24,000 nt of DNA from an uncultured Actinomycetota bacterium (GCA_963798505.1 CAWCTX010000005.1:807745-831744); one strand, 5' to 3'. Shown: positions 3,653 to 11,019, numbered from the stretch's first letter. Notes: a model not told the origin generated them from the letters alone. Numbers and translations: made by a program.

Positions 3653-5822
3653 TCAGACGGGCTGGACGGGCTCAGGGACCGGCTCCCTCTCGGGCTCACC
3701 TGGGGCCTCCGGCGCCGTACCGCGGTCGAGCTCGCTGGGCCACCAGATCTTCCCGCCGAGGTCGAGGTTGAGCGCGGTGACCAGCACCGACCGGACGATC
3801 ATGGTGTCCACTAGGACGCCGAGCGCGACCGCAACGCCGAGTTCCGCGAGGAATACCAGCGGCAGCGAGCCGAGGACGAGGAACGTCGCCGCGAGCACGA
3901 GGCCGGCCGAGGTGATCACGCCGCCTGTCGACGACAGCGCGATCAGCGAGCCCTTGCGGGTGCCGTGGTTGACGGTCTCCTCCCGGACCCGGGTCATCAG
4001 GAAGATGTTGTAGTCGATACCCAGCGCCACGAGGAACACGAAGGCGAACAACGGGAAGCCCGGGTCGGATCCGGCGAAGCCGAAGACGTACTCGAACAGC
4101 AGTGCCGAGATGCCCAAGGCTGCGCCGAACGAGAGGACCACCGTCGCGATCAGCAGGACCGGGGCGAGCACGGCGCGGAGCAGGGCGAGCAGGATCAGGA
4201 ACACCACGAGCAGGACCAGCGGGATGATCACCAGGTTGTCCCGGTTGGAGGCAATCTTGGTGTCGAGGTAGAACGCCGACCCGCCGCCGACGAGCGCGTT
4301 CGCGCCGTCGACCTCGTGGACCGCATCACGCGTGCCCTCGACGATGTCGAAGGCGTCCTGCGAGGAGATGTCCGCGGCGATGGTCGCCTCGAAGTAGGCG
4401 CGGCCGTCAGCGATCGGCGTGGCGGTTTCTGGCTCACCGACGCCCTCGACCCGGGCGACCGCGTCGCGGACGGCGTCTATCTGGTCCTGGTTGGCAACGA
4501 CCTGGACGGTGTTGGATGCGTCCTGCAGACCGTGTTCCATCAGGACCTTCTGGCCCTTGATCGAGTCGAACTCCTTGGTGTAGGTCTCCTCGGTCGAGAG
4601 GCCCCCGGTGTCGAGCCGGAACAAGCCGAGGCAGGCGACCAGCAGGATGCCGGTGGTGACGACCCAGACGACCCGCGGACGCGGCGCGACCGCGTTGCCC
4701 ACCTTCGCCCACATTCCGGTGCTGGTCGGCTCGTGCGAGCCGAACGTGGGCCGAACCGGCCAGAAGATCCAGCGGCCGCAGATGACCAGCAGGGCGGGCA
4801 GCAGGGTCACCATCACGAAGAAGGTGGCCGCGATGCCGACCGCGATGACTGGACCGAGGCCGGCCGTGGAGTTCAGCTCGGCGAAGACCAGGCAGAGCAT
4901 GCCGATGCACACGGTCGCGGCACTGGCGAGGATCGCCGGCGCTGCCCGGTGCAGTGCGAACGCCATCGCCTCGTGCCGGTCCTGGTGGCGGCGCAGCTCC
5001 TCGCGGTAGCGGGCGACGAGCAGCAGCGCATAGTCGGTGCCGGCGCCGATCACGAGGACGCTGAGGATGGCCTGGCTCTGGCCGTTCACGGTGAGGTCGG
5101 CGTACCGCGCCAGCAGGTAGATGATGCCGGTCGCGATGAGATTGGCGAAGACGGCGCAGAGCACGGGCAGGATCCACAGCACCGGGCTGCGGTAGGTGAA
5201 GAGCAGGATGACCACGACCACACCGAGCGTGGCGAGGATCAGGTTGGTGTCGATGCCCTCGAAGGTCTCGGCCGCGTCCGCGGTCTGGCCGCCGAAGCCG
5301 GCAAGGTGCACCGTCACGCCCTCCACCCCGGCGATGTCGCGGACCTCGTCGGCAGCCTCGGGGACGTCGGTCCAGCCCTCGTCGCCGAAGTTGAGGACTA
5401 GGTAGAGGTAGGCGGCCTCTCCGTCGTCGGACAGCAGTCGCTGCGGACGGTTCCTGCTCGGCCACGTTCGGCGAGAGTACGTCGGGGGAGCCGTCGGCGT
5501 TCTCGTCGGTGACGCCGTCGACCTGGGAGGCGATCGCGTCCGCCTGCTCGTCCATTGCGGCGAGGTCGGCCTCGGTCAGGCCGCCATCGCGGTGGTAGAC
5601 GACGAGGGTCGGGATGTCGTTGGGGTCGATGCTCTCGGACAGTTCGTCGAGGACCTTCGTCGACTCGGCGGAGGCAGGGAGCCACGACGACGCCTCGTTG
5701 TTCTGCACGTCGACGAGCTTGGGGCTCAGCGGGGCGAGCAGGAACGCGAGGAGTACGACGGCCGCGGCGACGATCCACTTGGTGACTGGGCCGGTGAGCT
5801 TTCCGGCGATCTGACGGTGCAT
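3653..5822 (-). pseudogene. MMPL family (RND superfamily) membrane transporter, one frame break near 5445-5460
   Basis: The N-terminus from ATG 5822 is MHRQIAGKLTGPVTKWIVAAAVVLLAFLLAPLSPKLVDVQNNEASSWLP... (ORF 4434..5822 frame). The protein continues as LLSDDGEAAYLYLVLNFGDEGW...GTDYALLLVARYREELRRH...GIDYNIFLMTRVREE (ORF 3653..5326 frame). It is paralogous to the gene at 13104-15227. Confidence 0.85.
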
Positions 5823-5871
5823 GAGGGCAGCCTCTCTAGGACCACGGGCAGGGCATACCTGACTCCGAAAG

Positions 5872-5945
5872 TCGTGGTGATGATGTCCTTGGCGGAGACG
5901 CTAGGTGCGCTTCGGTGATTGGTGCTTCTCGATTCCTGACCGGCT
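5872..5945 (-). repeat. Copy L (inverted, decayed) of the AraC-tail/VOC-head module, upstream of the MMPL start
   Basis: The reverse complement is AGCCGGTCAGGAATCGAGAAGCACCAATCACCGAAGCGCACCTAGCGTCTCCGCCAAGGACATCATCACCACGAC. It aligns with 8001-8075. The ATG is replaced by AAG and the TGA by TCT. Confidence 0.7.
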
Positions 5946-5971
5946 GGGACCGATCAGGAATCGAGAAGCAC
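5922..5971. promoter_or_regulatory. Large palindrome (18 bp perfect, 22-bp arms with 1 mismatch, 6-nt centre) in the divergent MMPL/MFS control region
   Basis: GTGCTTCTCGATTCCTGA (5922-5939) is the exact reverse complement of TCAGGAATCGAGAAGCAC (5954-5971). The arms extend to 5943 and 5950. The palindrome is formed by the junction of repeat copies L and C1. Confidence 0.6.
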
Positions 5972-6006
5972 GGGTCAACGGAGGGCACCTAGCGTGACCG
6001 CCGTGG
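5948..6006 (+). repeat. Copy C1 of the AraC-tail/VOC-head module, abutting the MFS start
   Basis: The sequence is GACCGATCAGGAATCGAGAAGCACGGGTCAACGGAGGGCACCTAGCGTGACCGCCGTGG. The module's TGA (5995-5997) overlaps the MFS GTG (5994). The position equivalent to the VOC ATG is GTG 6003, in frame with the MFS. Confidence 0.7.
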
Positions 6007-7307
6007 TGCTCCGACGCCTCGTGCCCTCCGCCTACCGGCCGGTGCTCGCCAACCGGGTGTTCCGGCGACTGACTCTCGGCTTCGCGGTCTCGTACCTCGG
6101 GGACGGGATGAGCTTCGTCGCGGTGGCGTGGCTCGCCATCGAGCTGGCGCCGCAGGCGACCGCGGGGCTGTGGGTCGGCGGCGCGGTGGCCGCGTACACG
6201 TTGCCGGGTGTGGTAGGCGCGCTGGTGTTCGGTCGCCGCCTGCGCCGGGTGCCGGCCAGGCGGCTGCTGCTCGCGGACAACGTCGTGCGCGGCGTGTTCC
6301 TGGGTGTCGTGCCGCTCGCCTGGCTCGCCGGGCTGCTCACGCCGCCGCTGTACGTCGTGCTGCTCGCGGTCTCGTCGCTGCTGCACGCGTGGGGCAGCGC
6401 GGGCAAATACACACTGCTGGCCGAGCTGCTACCGGACGAGCAGCGGCTCGCCGCGAACACCCTGGTCAGCTCGCTCAACTTCGCTGCCACGATCGCCGGG
6501 CCGGCGATCGCCGGTGTGCTGGTGACGTACGTCAGCTCGGCGCTCGTGATCGGCCTGGACGCGCTCACGTACGTGTTCCTCGCTGTGCTTGTCGCTCGCA
6601 CCCGGCTGCCGGAGGCGGGGGAGGTCTCACCCGTCGACCAGGCGGCCGCGCGCGGCGGGGTCGCGTTGATGCGGTCCCATCCCGAGCTGCTGGGGCTGCT
6701 GACGCTCACCTGGTTCTTCAACCTGCTGTACGGCCCGGTCGAGGTCGCGCTGCCGCTGCACGTGACCGACGACCTGCACGCTTCGGGCACGCTGCTCGGC
6801 CTGTACTGGATGCTGTTCGGCATCGGCGCGGTGCTTGGCGGGCTCGCAGTCGGCGCGCTGCGGCAGCTCCCGCGCTGGCCGGTGACGGTCGCGATCGTGG
6901 TCGCCTGGGGGCTCATCGCTGCTGCCGTTCGGGTTCGACGTGCCGACGGCCATCACGGTCGCGTGCTTCACGCTCGGCGGCGCGATCTACGGACCGTTCG
7001 TACCGCTGTCGGTGACGCTTATGCAGGCGAAGTCGCCACCGCAGCACCTGGCCGCGATGCTCGCAGCCCGAAGGCGGTGCTGCTGACCGCGTCACCGCTC
7101 GGCGCGGCAGTCGGCGGGCCGCTCACCTCGGCGCTGGGCCCGCGAGCGACGCTCGGGGGCTCAGGACTCGCCACGGTGGCGCTCGGCGCCGTCGCGTGCG
7201 TCCTGCTGCTGGCCCGGCGCAGCAACCAGCGAGCGCGCGTGGCGAATAGGGTGGCCAGACCGATCACGAATCGAGAAGCACCGGTGAACGAAGCGCAGCT
7301 AGCGTGA
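5994..7307 (+). pseudogene. MFS transporter (EntS/DUF894-like), two compensating frame breaks, C-terminus fused to an AraC-tail repeat
   Basis: The 437-aa ORF reads MTAVVLRRLVPSAYRPVLANRVFRRLTLGFAVSYLGDGMSFVAVAWLAIELA... Between about 6910 and 7072 the sensible sequence is in another frame: WGSSLLPFGFDVPTAITVACFTLGGAIYGPFVPLSVTLMQAKSPPQHLAAMLAAR. There is an extra G in the G-run 6907-6911 and a missing base near 7071-7074. The last residues, RVANRVARPITNREAPVNEAQLA*, are repeat copy C2. An alternative start is GTG 6003. Confidence 0.75.
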
Positions 7308-7322
7308 TCGCCATGGACATCA
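7237..7322 (+). repeat. Copy C2 of the AraC-tail/VOC-head module, at the MFS 3' end
   Basis: The sequence is GCGTGGCGAATAGGGTGGCCAGACCGATCACGAATCGAGAAGCACCGGTGAACGAAGCGCAGCTAGCGTGATCGCCATGGACATCA. It aligns base-for-base with 7982-8067. The TGA is at 7305-7307 and the ATG at 7313. Confidence 0.75.
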
Positions 7323-7582
7323 ACGAGTTGCTCATTGGAAACGAGACGTGTTGAAAGTAGGACGAAATGTGCGTTGAGGCCTCGGCTCGCCGCGTACCAC
7401 GCGGGCTTGCCAACCAAGACCATGTCGACGACGCGCAGACCGTCGCGGTCCAGAATGCCGCGCTGGAAGGCATCTACGTCGCTGCTGACGAGCCGGCCCT
7501 GATTCGGCTGCACCAGTCCGGTGAGATCGACAATGTCGAGTTCCAGAGTGGGGTGGGGCGCCAGCCGCGCTGGGCAAGTCCG

Positions 7583-8052
7583 GTGCGACGTACGATTGCG
7601 GACGTGACCAGCGGACCCGCCGCGGCCCAGCAATTGCGCGATCTCGCGCGGCTGCGCCGTGTCCGCGACCGGATCGACCGGGAGTACGCGCAGCCGCTGG
7701 ACGTCGAGGCGCTCGCCCGCGGCGTGAACATGTCGGCCGGGCATCTCAGCCGCGAGTTCAGGCGCGCTTACGGCGAGTCGCCGTACAGCTATCTGATGAC
7801 GCGGCGCATCGAGCGCGCGATGGCGCTGCTGCGTCGTGGCGACCTTAGCGTCACAGAGGTCTGTTTCGCGGTCGGCTGCTCGTCGCTGGGCACCTTCAGC
7901 ACTCGCTTCACCGAACTCGTCGGTGTGCCGCCCAGCACCTACCGGGGCCAGACGGACGCGCGACGTCGGGGATGCCGTCGTGCGTGGCGAAGCAGGTGAC
8001 CAGACCGATCAGGAATCGGGAAGCACGGGTCACCGAGCCGCAACTAGCGTGA
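7583..8052 (+). pseudogene. AraC/XylS-family transcriptional regulator (short, HTH-only type usually paired with a VOC gene), one frame break near 7944-7971
   Basis: From GTG 7583 the protein reads VRRTIADVTSGPAAAQQLRDLARLRRVRDRIDREYAQPLDVEALARGVNMSAGHLSREFRRAYGESPYSYLMTRRIERAMALLRRGDLSVTEVCFAVGCSSLGTFSTRFTELVGVPPSTYR. The tail MPSCVAKQVTRPIRNREARVTEPQLA* is in the -1 frame and ends at TGA 8050-8052. G-runs at 7944-7947 and 7968-7971 are candidate break sites. Confidence 0.8.
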
Positions 8053-8067
8053 CCGCCATGGACATCA
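7982..8067 (+). repeat. Copy C3 (native context) of the AraC-tail/VOC-head module
   Basis: The sequence is GCGTGGCGAAGCAGGTGACCAGACCGATCAGGAATCGGGAAGCACGGGTCACCGAGCCGCAACTAGCGTGACCGCCATGGACATCA. It spans the AraC 3' end, the 5-nt gap and the VOC start. Confidence 0.75.
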
Positions 8068-8471
8068 CCATCCACACCAGCCTTCCTTCCCCACGACGAC
8101 CCGGAGGCCTCCCTGGCCTTCTATCGCGACATCCTCGGCTTCGAGGTCCGCAGCGACGTCGGGTACGGCGGGATGCGCTGGATCACGGTCGGCCCCGCCG
8201 ACCAGCCCGACACGTCCATCGTCCTGCTCCGCCGGCCCGCCGGGTCCCGGCGTCACCGACGACGAGCGCCGCACGATCACCGAGATGATGGCCAAGGGCA
8301 CCTACGGCTGCGATCCTCCTGGCCACCAAGGACGTCGACAGCACCTTCGAGCGGCTGCAGGCCAGCGACGCCGAGGTCGTCCAGGAGCCGACCGACCAGC
8401 CGTACGGCGTACGTGATTGCGCCTTCCGCGACCCCGCGGGGAACACGGTCCGCATCCAGGAGCTGCGCTGA
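8058..8471 (+). pseudogene. VOC family protein (glyoxalase/bleomycin-resistance/dioxygenase fold), three +1 frame breaks
   Basis: The reconstruction is MDITIHTS/FLPHDDPEASLAFYRDILGFEVRSDVGYGGMRWITVGPADQPDTSIVLL/..[75 protein letters not shown]. The breaks are at C8082, about 8230-8248, and T8309. The frame order is 0, 1, 2, 0. The span is 414 nt. Confidence 0.8.
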
Positions 8472-8630
8472 GGCGTCCGACCATCTACGTCGGCTCGAGG
8501 CCGCCAGCCAGCACATCGGGCTGGTGTGCCGATGGGACTCGATAGGCGCATGGAGGTGCTTCGCAATGGCTGAGAGTAAGCCCGCAAAGAAGGGCACGCA
8601 GCAGTCCGCACATAGGGGGTCACCATAGGC

Positions 8631-11019
<2,389 letters not shown>

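Follow-up and report, generated by a model that had tools for sequence, protein, structure and literature searches.

Genetic organization of the locus

We analysed a stretch of 24,000 nucleotides (nt) from an uncultured Actinomycetota bacterium (GCA_963798505.1 CAWCTX010000005.1:807745-831744), hereafter called the window, in which a short unit is repeated four times in and around the gene of a small AraC/XylS regulator. The AraC gene (7604-8052, plus strand) matches the Pfam families HTH_18 and HTH_AraC and encodes a MarA/SoxS/RamA-like protein of 149 amino acids (aa) with two helix-turn-helix (HTH) motifs. It is preceded by a gene for an exporter of the MFS_3/MFS_1 type (6003-7307, plus strand) and followed by VOC1 (8058-8472, plus strand), a gene of the glyoxalase family whose product starts with MDITIH... 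(Pfam Glyoxalase, E = 2e-20 on the frame-corrected translation). A gene for an MMPL-family transporter (3653-5822) lies on the minus strand, and a gene for a UvrA-like ATPase (class II UvrA / DrrC-like; 8631-11019, plus strand) lies downstream of VOC1. The four copies of the unit are called L, C1, C2 and C3 in the order of their positions.

A first-pass annotation, made from the sequence, had reported these four copies, and our searches found them where it had put them. Allowing one mismatch, the 22-nt core CCGATCAGGAATCGAGAAGCAC matches at 5922-5943 on the minus strand and at 5950-5971, 7260-7281 and 8005-8026 on the plus strand, with a chance expectation of 0.00 in 100 dinucleotide-preserving shuffles. 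The 3' block GCACCTAGCGTGACCGCC also occurs four times, at 5891-5908 (minus strand), 5985-6002, 7295-7312 and 8040-8057, and its distance from the core is constant. When an nhmmer profile of 218 homologous elements was run on the 24-kb window, exactly four copies were found (E = 1e-17 to 9e-13) and no fifth one, three of them on the plus strand and one inverted. In a repeat search, C2 and C3 were 84% identical over 89 nt, and L, which is inverted, showed 82-83% complementarity with the other three copies over 53-66 nt. The pairwise identity of 82-84% over 53-89 nt agrees with the roughly 85% that had been estimated by hand. L and C1 are arranged head to head, with repeat arms at 5891-5943 and 5950-6002 and a gap of 6 nt. 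Their back-to-back boxes (5922-5971) form a palindrome with 16-nt arms. The gap between these arms is 14 nt in the window and 4 nt in the related contigs L001 (8592-8631) and L002 (8660-8698) described below; the difference of 10 nt equals one helical turn.

All four copies are built in the same way: a 22-nt box, an 18-nt variable spacer, the hexamer TAGCGT (of the form TANNNT), 7 nt and a start codon, which is decayed in L. The box has the consensus CCG(A/G)TCAGGAATCGAGAAGC(A/G)C and is asymmetric; the repeat search listed none of the copies as an inverted repeat internal to a unit, and more than 200 instances of the box show its conservation. C3 is the native unit (8005-8060, plus strand), with the box at 8005-8026, the spacer at 8027-8044, TAGCGT at 8045-8050 and, after 7 nt, the ATG of VOC1 at 8058-8060. 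It lies within the last 16 codons of the AraC gene, whose tail reads ..CVAKQVTRPIRNREARVTEPQLA*; the AraC stop codon TGA (8050-8052) begins with the last T of TAGCGT and is separated from the VOC ATG by 5 nt. This layout was found in 78/78 AraC homologue loci. C2 (7237-7354, plus strand) consists of decayed AraC-tail codons (7237-7259), the box (7260-7281), TAGCGT (7300-7305), the stop codon TGA of the MFS gene (7305-7307) and an ATG at 7313. The decayed AraC tail forms the C-terminus of the MFS open reading frame (ORF), which ends with ..RVANRVARPITNREAPVNEAQLA*; the last 16 codons and the stop codon of the MFS gene are therefore supplied by C2. Behind it come ATGGACATC and a VOC-start stub of 13 codons (7313-7354), and the AraC start lies about 290 nt further on. 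C1 (5950-6005, plus strand) is found directly 5' of the MFS gene, with the box at 5950-5971, TAGCGT at 5990-5995 and, after 7 nt, a GTG (6003-6005) that is probably the MFS start codon. L (5872-5943, minus strand) is inverted and decayed. Its box is at 5943-5922, TAGCGT at 5903-5898 and the decayed start codon AAG at 5890-5888, and a VOC-start remnant, AAGGACATCATCACC, extends to about 5872. L faces the MMPL gene, whose ATG at 5822 lies 68 nt away and is preceded by GAGAGG. The gene context of each copy agrees with the first-pass annotation, which was also right that no Shine-Dalgarno sequence precedes the native ATG: a purine-rich stretch is absent from the 7-nt gap (GACCGCC) of C1, C2 and C3.

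The unit is retained in related contigs

Two metagenome contigs, L001 and L002, carry the same locus with intact genes in the order GntR, MMPL (minus strand) and then, on the plus strand, MFS_3-AraC-VOC-DUF1801-UvrA-like. Both contain all four copies at the same positions. Because these two contigs are independent, the copies are not an assembly artefact, a possibility that had been raised before. Nor do the relatives show plain AraC-VOC pairs without transporters, as L001 and L002 keep MMPL and MFS beside the copies.

In the window, L001 and L002, each of the four sites has kept the box and TANNNT, while the AraC-tail and VOC-start flanks are trimmed differently by site and lineage. At L, 39 nt of the VOC start are kept in the window and none in L001 and L002. 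At C1, an extra 38 nt of VOC start (ATGGACGTCACGACTCAC..) precede the MFS ATG in L001 and are absent from the window and L002; the box of this copy is unchanged in both contigs. At C2, remnants of the AraC tail (32 nt) and of the VOC start (31 nt) are present in the window; L001 and L002 lack both and have kept the box and TAGCGT. The C2 copies are orthologous, because C2-specific spacer bases (AACG..GCAGCTAGCGTGAT) are shared by the window, L001 and L002. A recent gene conversion of C2 from C3 was considered and rejected on the same ground. In all three sequences the MFS protein ends in a peptide encoded by the element (..PIRNREAP..QLA*); here, too, the 3' end of an upstream ORF tolerates the element. 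The relatives amount to a natural deletion series, and the stretch from the box to the hexamer that survives everywhere appears to be the footprint of a promoter.

The tail of the regulator gene is conserved as DNA

Codon usage was compared inside and outside the box in 80 homologous AraC genes, in which the G+C content of third codon positions outside the box is 0.916. Rare codons are nearly fixed inside it. Arginine is encoded by AGG in 10/1457 cases outside the box and in 80/80 inside, and by CGA in 37/1457 and 75/77, respectively. For glutamate, GAA is found in 55/580 cases outside and 77/78 inside, and for asparagine, AAT is found in 1/44 and 78/79. The leucine codons CTA or TTA, which give the TA of the hexamer, are used in 8/1041 cases elsewhere and in 57/60 at the hexamer. 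On the other hand, the codons just 5' of the box (CVAKQVT) vary freely at synonymous sites. Since these rare codons are nearly fixed in the box and third positions outside it are G+C-rich, selection acts on the DNA sequence itself in the native copy. The tail is conserved as both protein and DNA, and the DNA signal is separable. We propose that the native tail is conserved at the nucleotide level, rare codons included, because it doubles as the VOC promoter.

Architecture and targets of copies outside AraC genes

The genome set comprised the window and 82 further loci, including L001 and L002, and contained 102 boxes at up to four mismatches. TANNNT is found 17-19 nt 3' of the box in 98/102, and ATG or GTG follows the hexamer after 7 nt in 79 and after 6 nt in 8. 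The hexamers vary at the middle positions only (TAGCGT 48, TAGCCT 17, TAGCAT 6, TAGTGT 6, TAACGT 5, TATAAT 2, and others), and this pattern looks like that of a -10 element and not of a fixed codon pair. The metagenome set came from an independent search with the exact 22-mer, which gave at least 120 contigs with at least 122 boxes among the matches listed; the numbers for this set refer to these matches. Here TANNNT is present at 17-18 nt in 116/122 and a start codon at 7 nt in 84/122, so that TANNNT is found in 214/224 boxes of the two sets combined.

Many of these boxes are orphans. In the genome loci, 24/102 boxes have no intact AraC gene directly upstream (the window, L001 and L002 are included in this count). 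In the metagenome set, AraC tails account for 58-62/122 boxes, and about 43-47/122 have at least 500 nt upstream without an AraC ORF (about 35-40%). The first-pass annotation had allowed that the core might be found only as the coding tail of intact AraC genes with variation confined to synonymous positions. We found instead that copies occur outside AraC 3' ends in both genomes and metagenomes. Every orphan listed points into a gene, the start of which coincides with the conserved start position or lies shortly downstream. These genes encode VOC1 (MDITIH...); other VOC types, namely a 204-aa protein, proteins of 120-130 aa starting with MTMTGSSTQGIKTVLHPVSDL and a 137-aa protein starting with MNSHVSSILLGV; UvrA-like ATPases in five cases (L076, L127, L142, L157 and L195, where the box directly precedes the gene); DUF1801-like proteins in about nine cases; and an MFS transporter, an ABC ATPase and a deazaflavin-dependent nitroreductase-family (Ddn-like) protein. 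The exact box is found with the regulator in Chloroflexota and Burkholderiales loci as well.

The DUF1801-like targets form a subclass of their own with a leader (L093, L111, L113, L114, L119, L121, L143, L144, L149 and L185). Its members have conserved bases before the box (..GGCCCCGAT), a 17-nt spacer, TAGCCT, a leader of 50-80 nt and then the gene MPAKNAKTESDGF.... This subclass looks like an old target promoter that has been maintained independently.

In Mycobacterium tuberculosis, 73% of primary transcription start sites have TANNNT at a distance of 7-12 bp upstream, there is no -35 consensus, and 26% of genes are leaderless (PMC3898074). The unit resembles actinobacterial leaderless promoters in having TANNNT, no Shine-Dalgarno sequence and a start codon (ATG or GTG) separated from the hexamer by 6-7 nt (PMC3898074), and it differs from them in that the spacing is mostly 7 nt and that an additional conserved box implies a required factor. 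We consider that each copy is probably a compact, activator-dependent promoter, likely leaderless, which has been spread by duplication. Among the possibilities offered by the first-pass annotation, this is the portable cis-regulatory cassette, and it agrees with the retention of the box and the -10 element while the flanks decay.

The AraC gene itself begins in a similar way. Its putative leaderless promoter and start (7591-7606, plus strand) consist of TACGAT (7591-7596), 7 nt and the GTG at 7604. When the sequences upstream of 79 loci were aligned, most homologues had TGGCACGAT-N7-GTG, with the pattern (T/C)ACGAT and in most of them TGG before it. This start region is conserved across phyla as ..GCGACGTGGCACGAT-N7-GTGACCAGC and resembles an extended -10 leaderless promoter. 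Both genes of the AraC-VOC module thus appear to have the layout of actinobacterial leaderless promoters.

It was also suggested before that the copies are scars of serially duplicated AraC-VOC modules that were overwritten. As an account of their origin this stands: C2 keeps 8 AraC-tail codons upstream and the 13-codon VOC stub, VOC start codons remain in L and in the C1 copy of L001, ...PSCVAKQVTR remnants are seen in some orphans elsewhere, and the AraC-VOC module is multi-copy and horizontally mobile. What did not stand is neutrality. In three diverged genomes, all four sites still have the box and TANNNT, while their flanks have been deleted or randomised. The 24 nt upstream of orphan boxes are unrelated sequences with 0.31 bits per position, compared with 1.57 in native copies, whereas the -10 hexamer of orphans has 1.67 bits (1.54 in native copies). 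Orphans always point into a gene, with a start codon mostly 6-7 nt after the -10 element, and the unit recurs before the same families (UvrA-like, DUF1801 and VOC types 2-4) in unrelated contigs. We therefore regard neutral scars as quite unlikely.

Because no Shine-Dalgarno sequence precedes the ATG, the native junction had been taken for a translational coupler, at which ribosomes that terminate at the TGA restart at the ATG 5 nt downstream. The stop-to-ATG gap is indeed 5 nt in C3 and C2, and on read-through transcripts VOC translation may well benefit from coupling. Nevertheless, L and C1 stand back to back between divergent genes with no upstream ORF, and about 40% of the metagenome boxes listed have no AraC ORF and no ORF ending in them. 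In L the ATG is decayed, and MMPL has its own Shine-Dalgarno sequence and a start 68 nt downstream. The box lies 32-53 nt before the restart codon, and no conserved RNA structure was found: RNAalifold on 44 copies gave -0.44 kcal/mol and zero covarying pairs, and Rfam at gathering thresholds gave no match at any copy in a search of the whole window. As the repeat search found no terminal inverted repeats within a unit either, the unit does not fit a structured cis-regulatory RNA or a MITE- or REP-like repeat. A coupler is thus very unlikely as the explanation of the unit. The absent Shine-Dalgarno sequence is better explained by the leaderless promoter, because TANNNT located 7 nt before the start codon is a leaderless layout.

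The regulator and its proposed relationship to the box

The Pfam domain HTH_18 covers residues 37-115 of the regulator. Its closest solved relatives in the PDB are RamA (E = 1e-10), MarA, SoxS and Rob, small proteins with chains of 107-130 residues that comprise little more than the DNA-binding domain. AlphaFold predicts seven helices in residues 6-115. Residues 133-150, which are encoded by the DNA from the box onward, have a pLDDT below 50 and no secondary structure, although this is weak evidence because the alignment is shallow. The prediction fits with the tail peptide being a passenger of the DNA element. There are more than 8000 homologues of the regulator, and the best 120 are 87-95% identical, including the tail MPSCVAKQVTRPIRNREAxxxEPQLA. 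A scan of one genome per species gave 80 loci with 82-91% identity in many orders of Actinomycetota, in Chloroflexota (Dormibacteraeota, Thermomicrobiales and Limnocylindrales) and in two Burkholderiales. The AraC-VOC pair is also found on plasmids or chromids of Streptomyces, Deinococcus, Variovorax, Paraburkholderia and Cupriavidus with 76-87% nucleotide identity. For example, pDAETH-1 of Deinococcus aetherius carries AraC-VOC-DUF1801 with the exact box, TAGAGT, 6 nt and ATG. Identities of 82-91% in protein and 76-87% in DNA between phyla, megaplasmids included, are unusually high, which suggests that the AraC-VOC module has spread horizontally. Two UvrA-like proteins of 794-799 aa (P0124 and P0132) are listed in the same 90%-identity cluster as the 149-aa AraC protein (P0050). 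An AraC-UvrA fusion was considered for them and rejected; they are ordinary UvrA-like proteins, and their presence in the cluster is probably a database artefact. No function or binding site of the regulator was found in the published literature searched, the coverage of which was partial.

The regulator is similar to the proteins of the mar/sox/rob system (MarA, SoxS, Rob and RamA) in being a small single-domain AraC/XylS protein with two HTH motifs. Regulators of the MarA family act as activators from an asymmetric box that is about 20 bp long and, at class II promoters, overlaps with the -35 hexamer (PMC12052159). The unit is like a class II marbox promoter in that its asymmetric box of about this size ends 17-18 bp before the -10 element and would cover the -35 position (PMC12052159). 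The box would be the operator of the MarA/SoxS-like AraC regulator encoded at the same locus, and with its end 17-18 bp before TANNNT it would occupy the class II position overlapping -35, for which the centre of the box falls between -36 and -55. If transcription begins at the start codon, the box would span about -53 to -32 relative to it, where forward marboxes are placed at MarA class II promoters (PMC12052159). Since TANNNT precedes ATG or GTG by 7 bp (sometimes 6), transcription probably starts at or next to the start codon, which would give a leaderless mRNA. An activator would be needed because the -35 sequence is not sigma-70-like. The adjacent AraC protein is the candidate for the cognate factor because it is of the right type and because the box is unchanged across phyla in which host factors differ.

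According to this model, the VOC promoter would be contained in the 16 final codons of the regulator gene. The unit would have been copied repeatedly together with a few AraC-tail and VOC-start codons, and its flanks would have decayed later. L would drive MMPL and C1 would drive MFS. C3 would drive VOC and probably also the UvrA-like gene, and VOC1 would be the native target of the C3 promoter. C2 reads towards the AraC gene, which would mean positive autoregulation. marRAB is autoactivated by a MarA-type regulator, and the copy upstream of the AraC gene suggests the same here. In addition, nine loci (L017, L026, L048, L049, L063, L066, L072, L077 and L079) have the order box - VOCx - AraC - box - VOC1, which is how positive autoregulation would look. 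C2 is therefore likely to be an autoregulatory promoter, as judged from its position and direction. It is proposed that the copies in the window are the local arm of a widespread regulon of the xenobiotic/antibiotic type.

The box could belong to a real promoter and still be read by another transcription factor or by an alternative sigma factor. A GGAAT within it is similar to the -35 element of SigR/SigH-type ECF (extracytoplasmic function) promoters, and most orphan boxes have no AraC gene on the same metagenome contig, among the matches listed. However, GTT or CGT is missing as a -10 element 16-18 nt after GGAAT, and the conserved TANNNT is found 28-29 nt further on. An ECF-type promoter (GGAAT-N16-18-GTT/CGT) was rejected as a candidate for lack of a -10 element at ECF spacing. 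Moreover, the box is identical in Deinococcus, Chloroflexota and Burkholderiales, where an actinobacterial host factor would be absent, and the AraC gene always travels with the box; its size, asymmetry and position fit a MarA-type monomer. For these reasons we consider a different factor unlikely.

In another explanation, the box is a site of recombination where the genes behind AraC regulators are exchanged, or the unit is a mobile promoter equipped with its own means of transfer. In independent orphans, the shared sequence does begin abruptly, about 3 nt 5' of the box, and many genes are joined just after the start codon, including those for UvrA-like and MFS proteins with MD.. N-termini. 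The module is horizontally mobile and is found on plasmids, and promoter reuse before unrelated genes has already been described (PMC3575422). One transposase gene lies near the Deinococcus copy. These boundaries are equally explained by selection on a promoter footprint of about -55 to +1, and younger copies have variable extra flanks, as in ordinary duplication and deletion. The window has no adjacent recombinase or transposase and no terminal inverted repeats, none being found within a unit by the repeat search of the window; no search was aimed at target-site duplications. The recombination hot spot of the first-pass annotation is thus not needed and has no direct support, and we hold it to be highly improbable.

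Several points weigh against the promoter model. We infer the binding of the AraC protein to the box, activation as opposed to repression, the transcription start and the nature of the inducer. The spacing of 7 nt between the -10 element and the start codon is one above the mycobacterial mode. The -35 position reads AAGCGC, which is not sigma-70-like, and a generic scan of 5700-8600 for sigma-70 promoters and terminators gave no match. The marbox consensus, searched with up to three mismatches, gave no match at the four copies, and its matches in the whole window were at chance level. The spacer is conserved almost equally in orphans (0.96 bits) and native copies (1.06 bits), so that many orphans may be young copies. 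The selection of the metagenome sample by the exact box inflates box conservation there, and the cross-phylum nucleotide identity of 76-87% means that some box conservation may reflect recent horizontal transfer. If the frameshifts of the AraC gene and its neighbours described below are real, the local system may be decaying. The rare-codon signal and the orphan copies are arguments that are independent of recent transfer.

Neighbouring genes

Nearly every gene in 3653-11019 is frameshifted in the window, and the orthologues in L001 and L002 are intact. The MMPL gene, downstream of L, is split into two frames by a frameshift near 4434-5326 and encodes 703-720 aa in L001 and L002. The MFS gene, with C1 at its 5' end, has two compensating frameshifts near 6900-7080; the arrangement of this gene with its copies is common to L001 and L002. 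In the AraC gene, a 1-nt deletion near 7947-7952 relative to L002 shifts the frame ahead of the tail, and the length of 149 aa is obtained after correction. This frameshift would swap the last 33 or so residues and leaves the DNA box intact. VOC1 is frameshifted at several sites and the UvrA-like gene at 9094-9560. The widespread frameshifts are due either to an error-prone assembly or to real pseudogenisation of a decaying locus.

A DUF1801 gene is found between VOC and the UvrA-like gene in L001 (11059-11556), in L002 and on the Deinococcus plasmid. The window lacks this gene, and only about 158 nt (8473-8630) lie there between VOC and the UvrA-like gene. The segment of about 290 nt from the C2 stub to the AraC start (7316-7603) differs in length among the window, L001 and L002 by in-frame indels. 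Gene callers extend the N-terminus of AraC with this segment (P0001 and P0002), for which there is no family match. No significant match to VOC types 1-4 or DUF1801 was found in 7316-7603 by BLASTP and tblastn. That a second VOC gene was once present here under the control of C2 and has since been deleted is unsupported, as no VOC remnant was detectable in this segment. A minus-strand ORF at 7019-7744 has no Pfam family.

The sole Rfam match in the window is a c-di-AMP (cyclic di-AMP) riboswitch of the ydaO/yuaA type (RF00379; 15379-15536, plus strand; 52.7 bits, E = 9e-10). The gene 3' of it probably encodes a transglycosylase/LysM (Rpf-like) protein, as judged by synteny with the gene at 18039-18755 of L001.

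Comparison with known systems and significance

The targets of the unit include efflux pumps (MFS, MMPL and ABC) and detoxification-type enzymes, as do those of mar/sox/rob. Unlike mar/sox/rob, its hosts are Actinomycetota and other high-G+C phyla and its promoters look leaderless. The putative main operator-promoter is located inside the 3' coding sequence of the regulator itself, and the regulator has an extra conserved C-terminal tail (MPSCVAKQVT...). The sequence of the box is unrelated to the marbox consensus AYnGCACnnWnnRYYAAAYn. A true marbox was rejected on the consensus test described above, and the mode of action would be only analogous.

Promoter reuse is known from putative mobile promoters, in which near-identical upstream regions precede non-homologous genes in one genome as well as in different genera (Nijveen, Matus-Garcia, van Passel, PMC3575422). 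The unit is similar to these in that it precedes MMPL, MFS, AraC and VOC here and UvrA-like, DUF1801, VOC types 2-4, ABC and Ddn-like genes elsewhere; it is different from them in its defined internal architecture, its origin in a coding region and its tie to one co-transferred regulator family (PMC3575422). A promoter internal to an upstream gene is also known. The recX promoter of M. tuberculosis is reported to lie within recA (PMC3062782), and the native unit likewise lies in the 3' part of an upstream coding sequence. Unlike in recX/recA (PMC3062782), the upstream gene here encodes the presumed cognate regulator, a rare-codon signature extends across phyla, and the unit is duplicated elsewhere. 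No description of the element was found in the literature searched, whose coverage was incomplete. The box and its regulon, the operator-promoter in the last codons of a regulator gene with its rare-codon signature, and the reuse of a unit of about 55 bp look new.

We tentatively suggest, as an idea that falls a little short of being probable, that the AraC gene and its embedded operator-promoter are a self-contained cassette of regulator and inducible promoter, portable by horizontal transfer, whose 3' end is selected both as protein and as promoter. Copies of this end would have seeded an undescribed regulon in at least four phyla, with VOC, UvrA-like, DUF1801 and exporter genes as members, that responds to a toxic compound. 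The compound is perhaps DNA-targeting or electrophilic and is possibly sensed by the invariant cysteine of the tail.

If the promoter model is true, it would provide the operator, the promoter architecture and a first map of the regulon for a highly conserved small regulator of soil Actinomycetota. Exporters, bleomycin-resistance-like VOC proteins and UvrA-like (DrrC-type) ATPases suggest an intrinsic defence circuit against drugs or toxins that moves on plasmids. It would also be a case of dual coding, in which the C-terminal codons of a regulator are frozen as rare codons by the promoter of the next gene, and a footprint of about 55 bp rewires other genes. A 55-bp unit together with a 450-bp gene would be a compact, transferable and inducible expression system for high-G+C bacteria.

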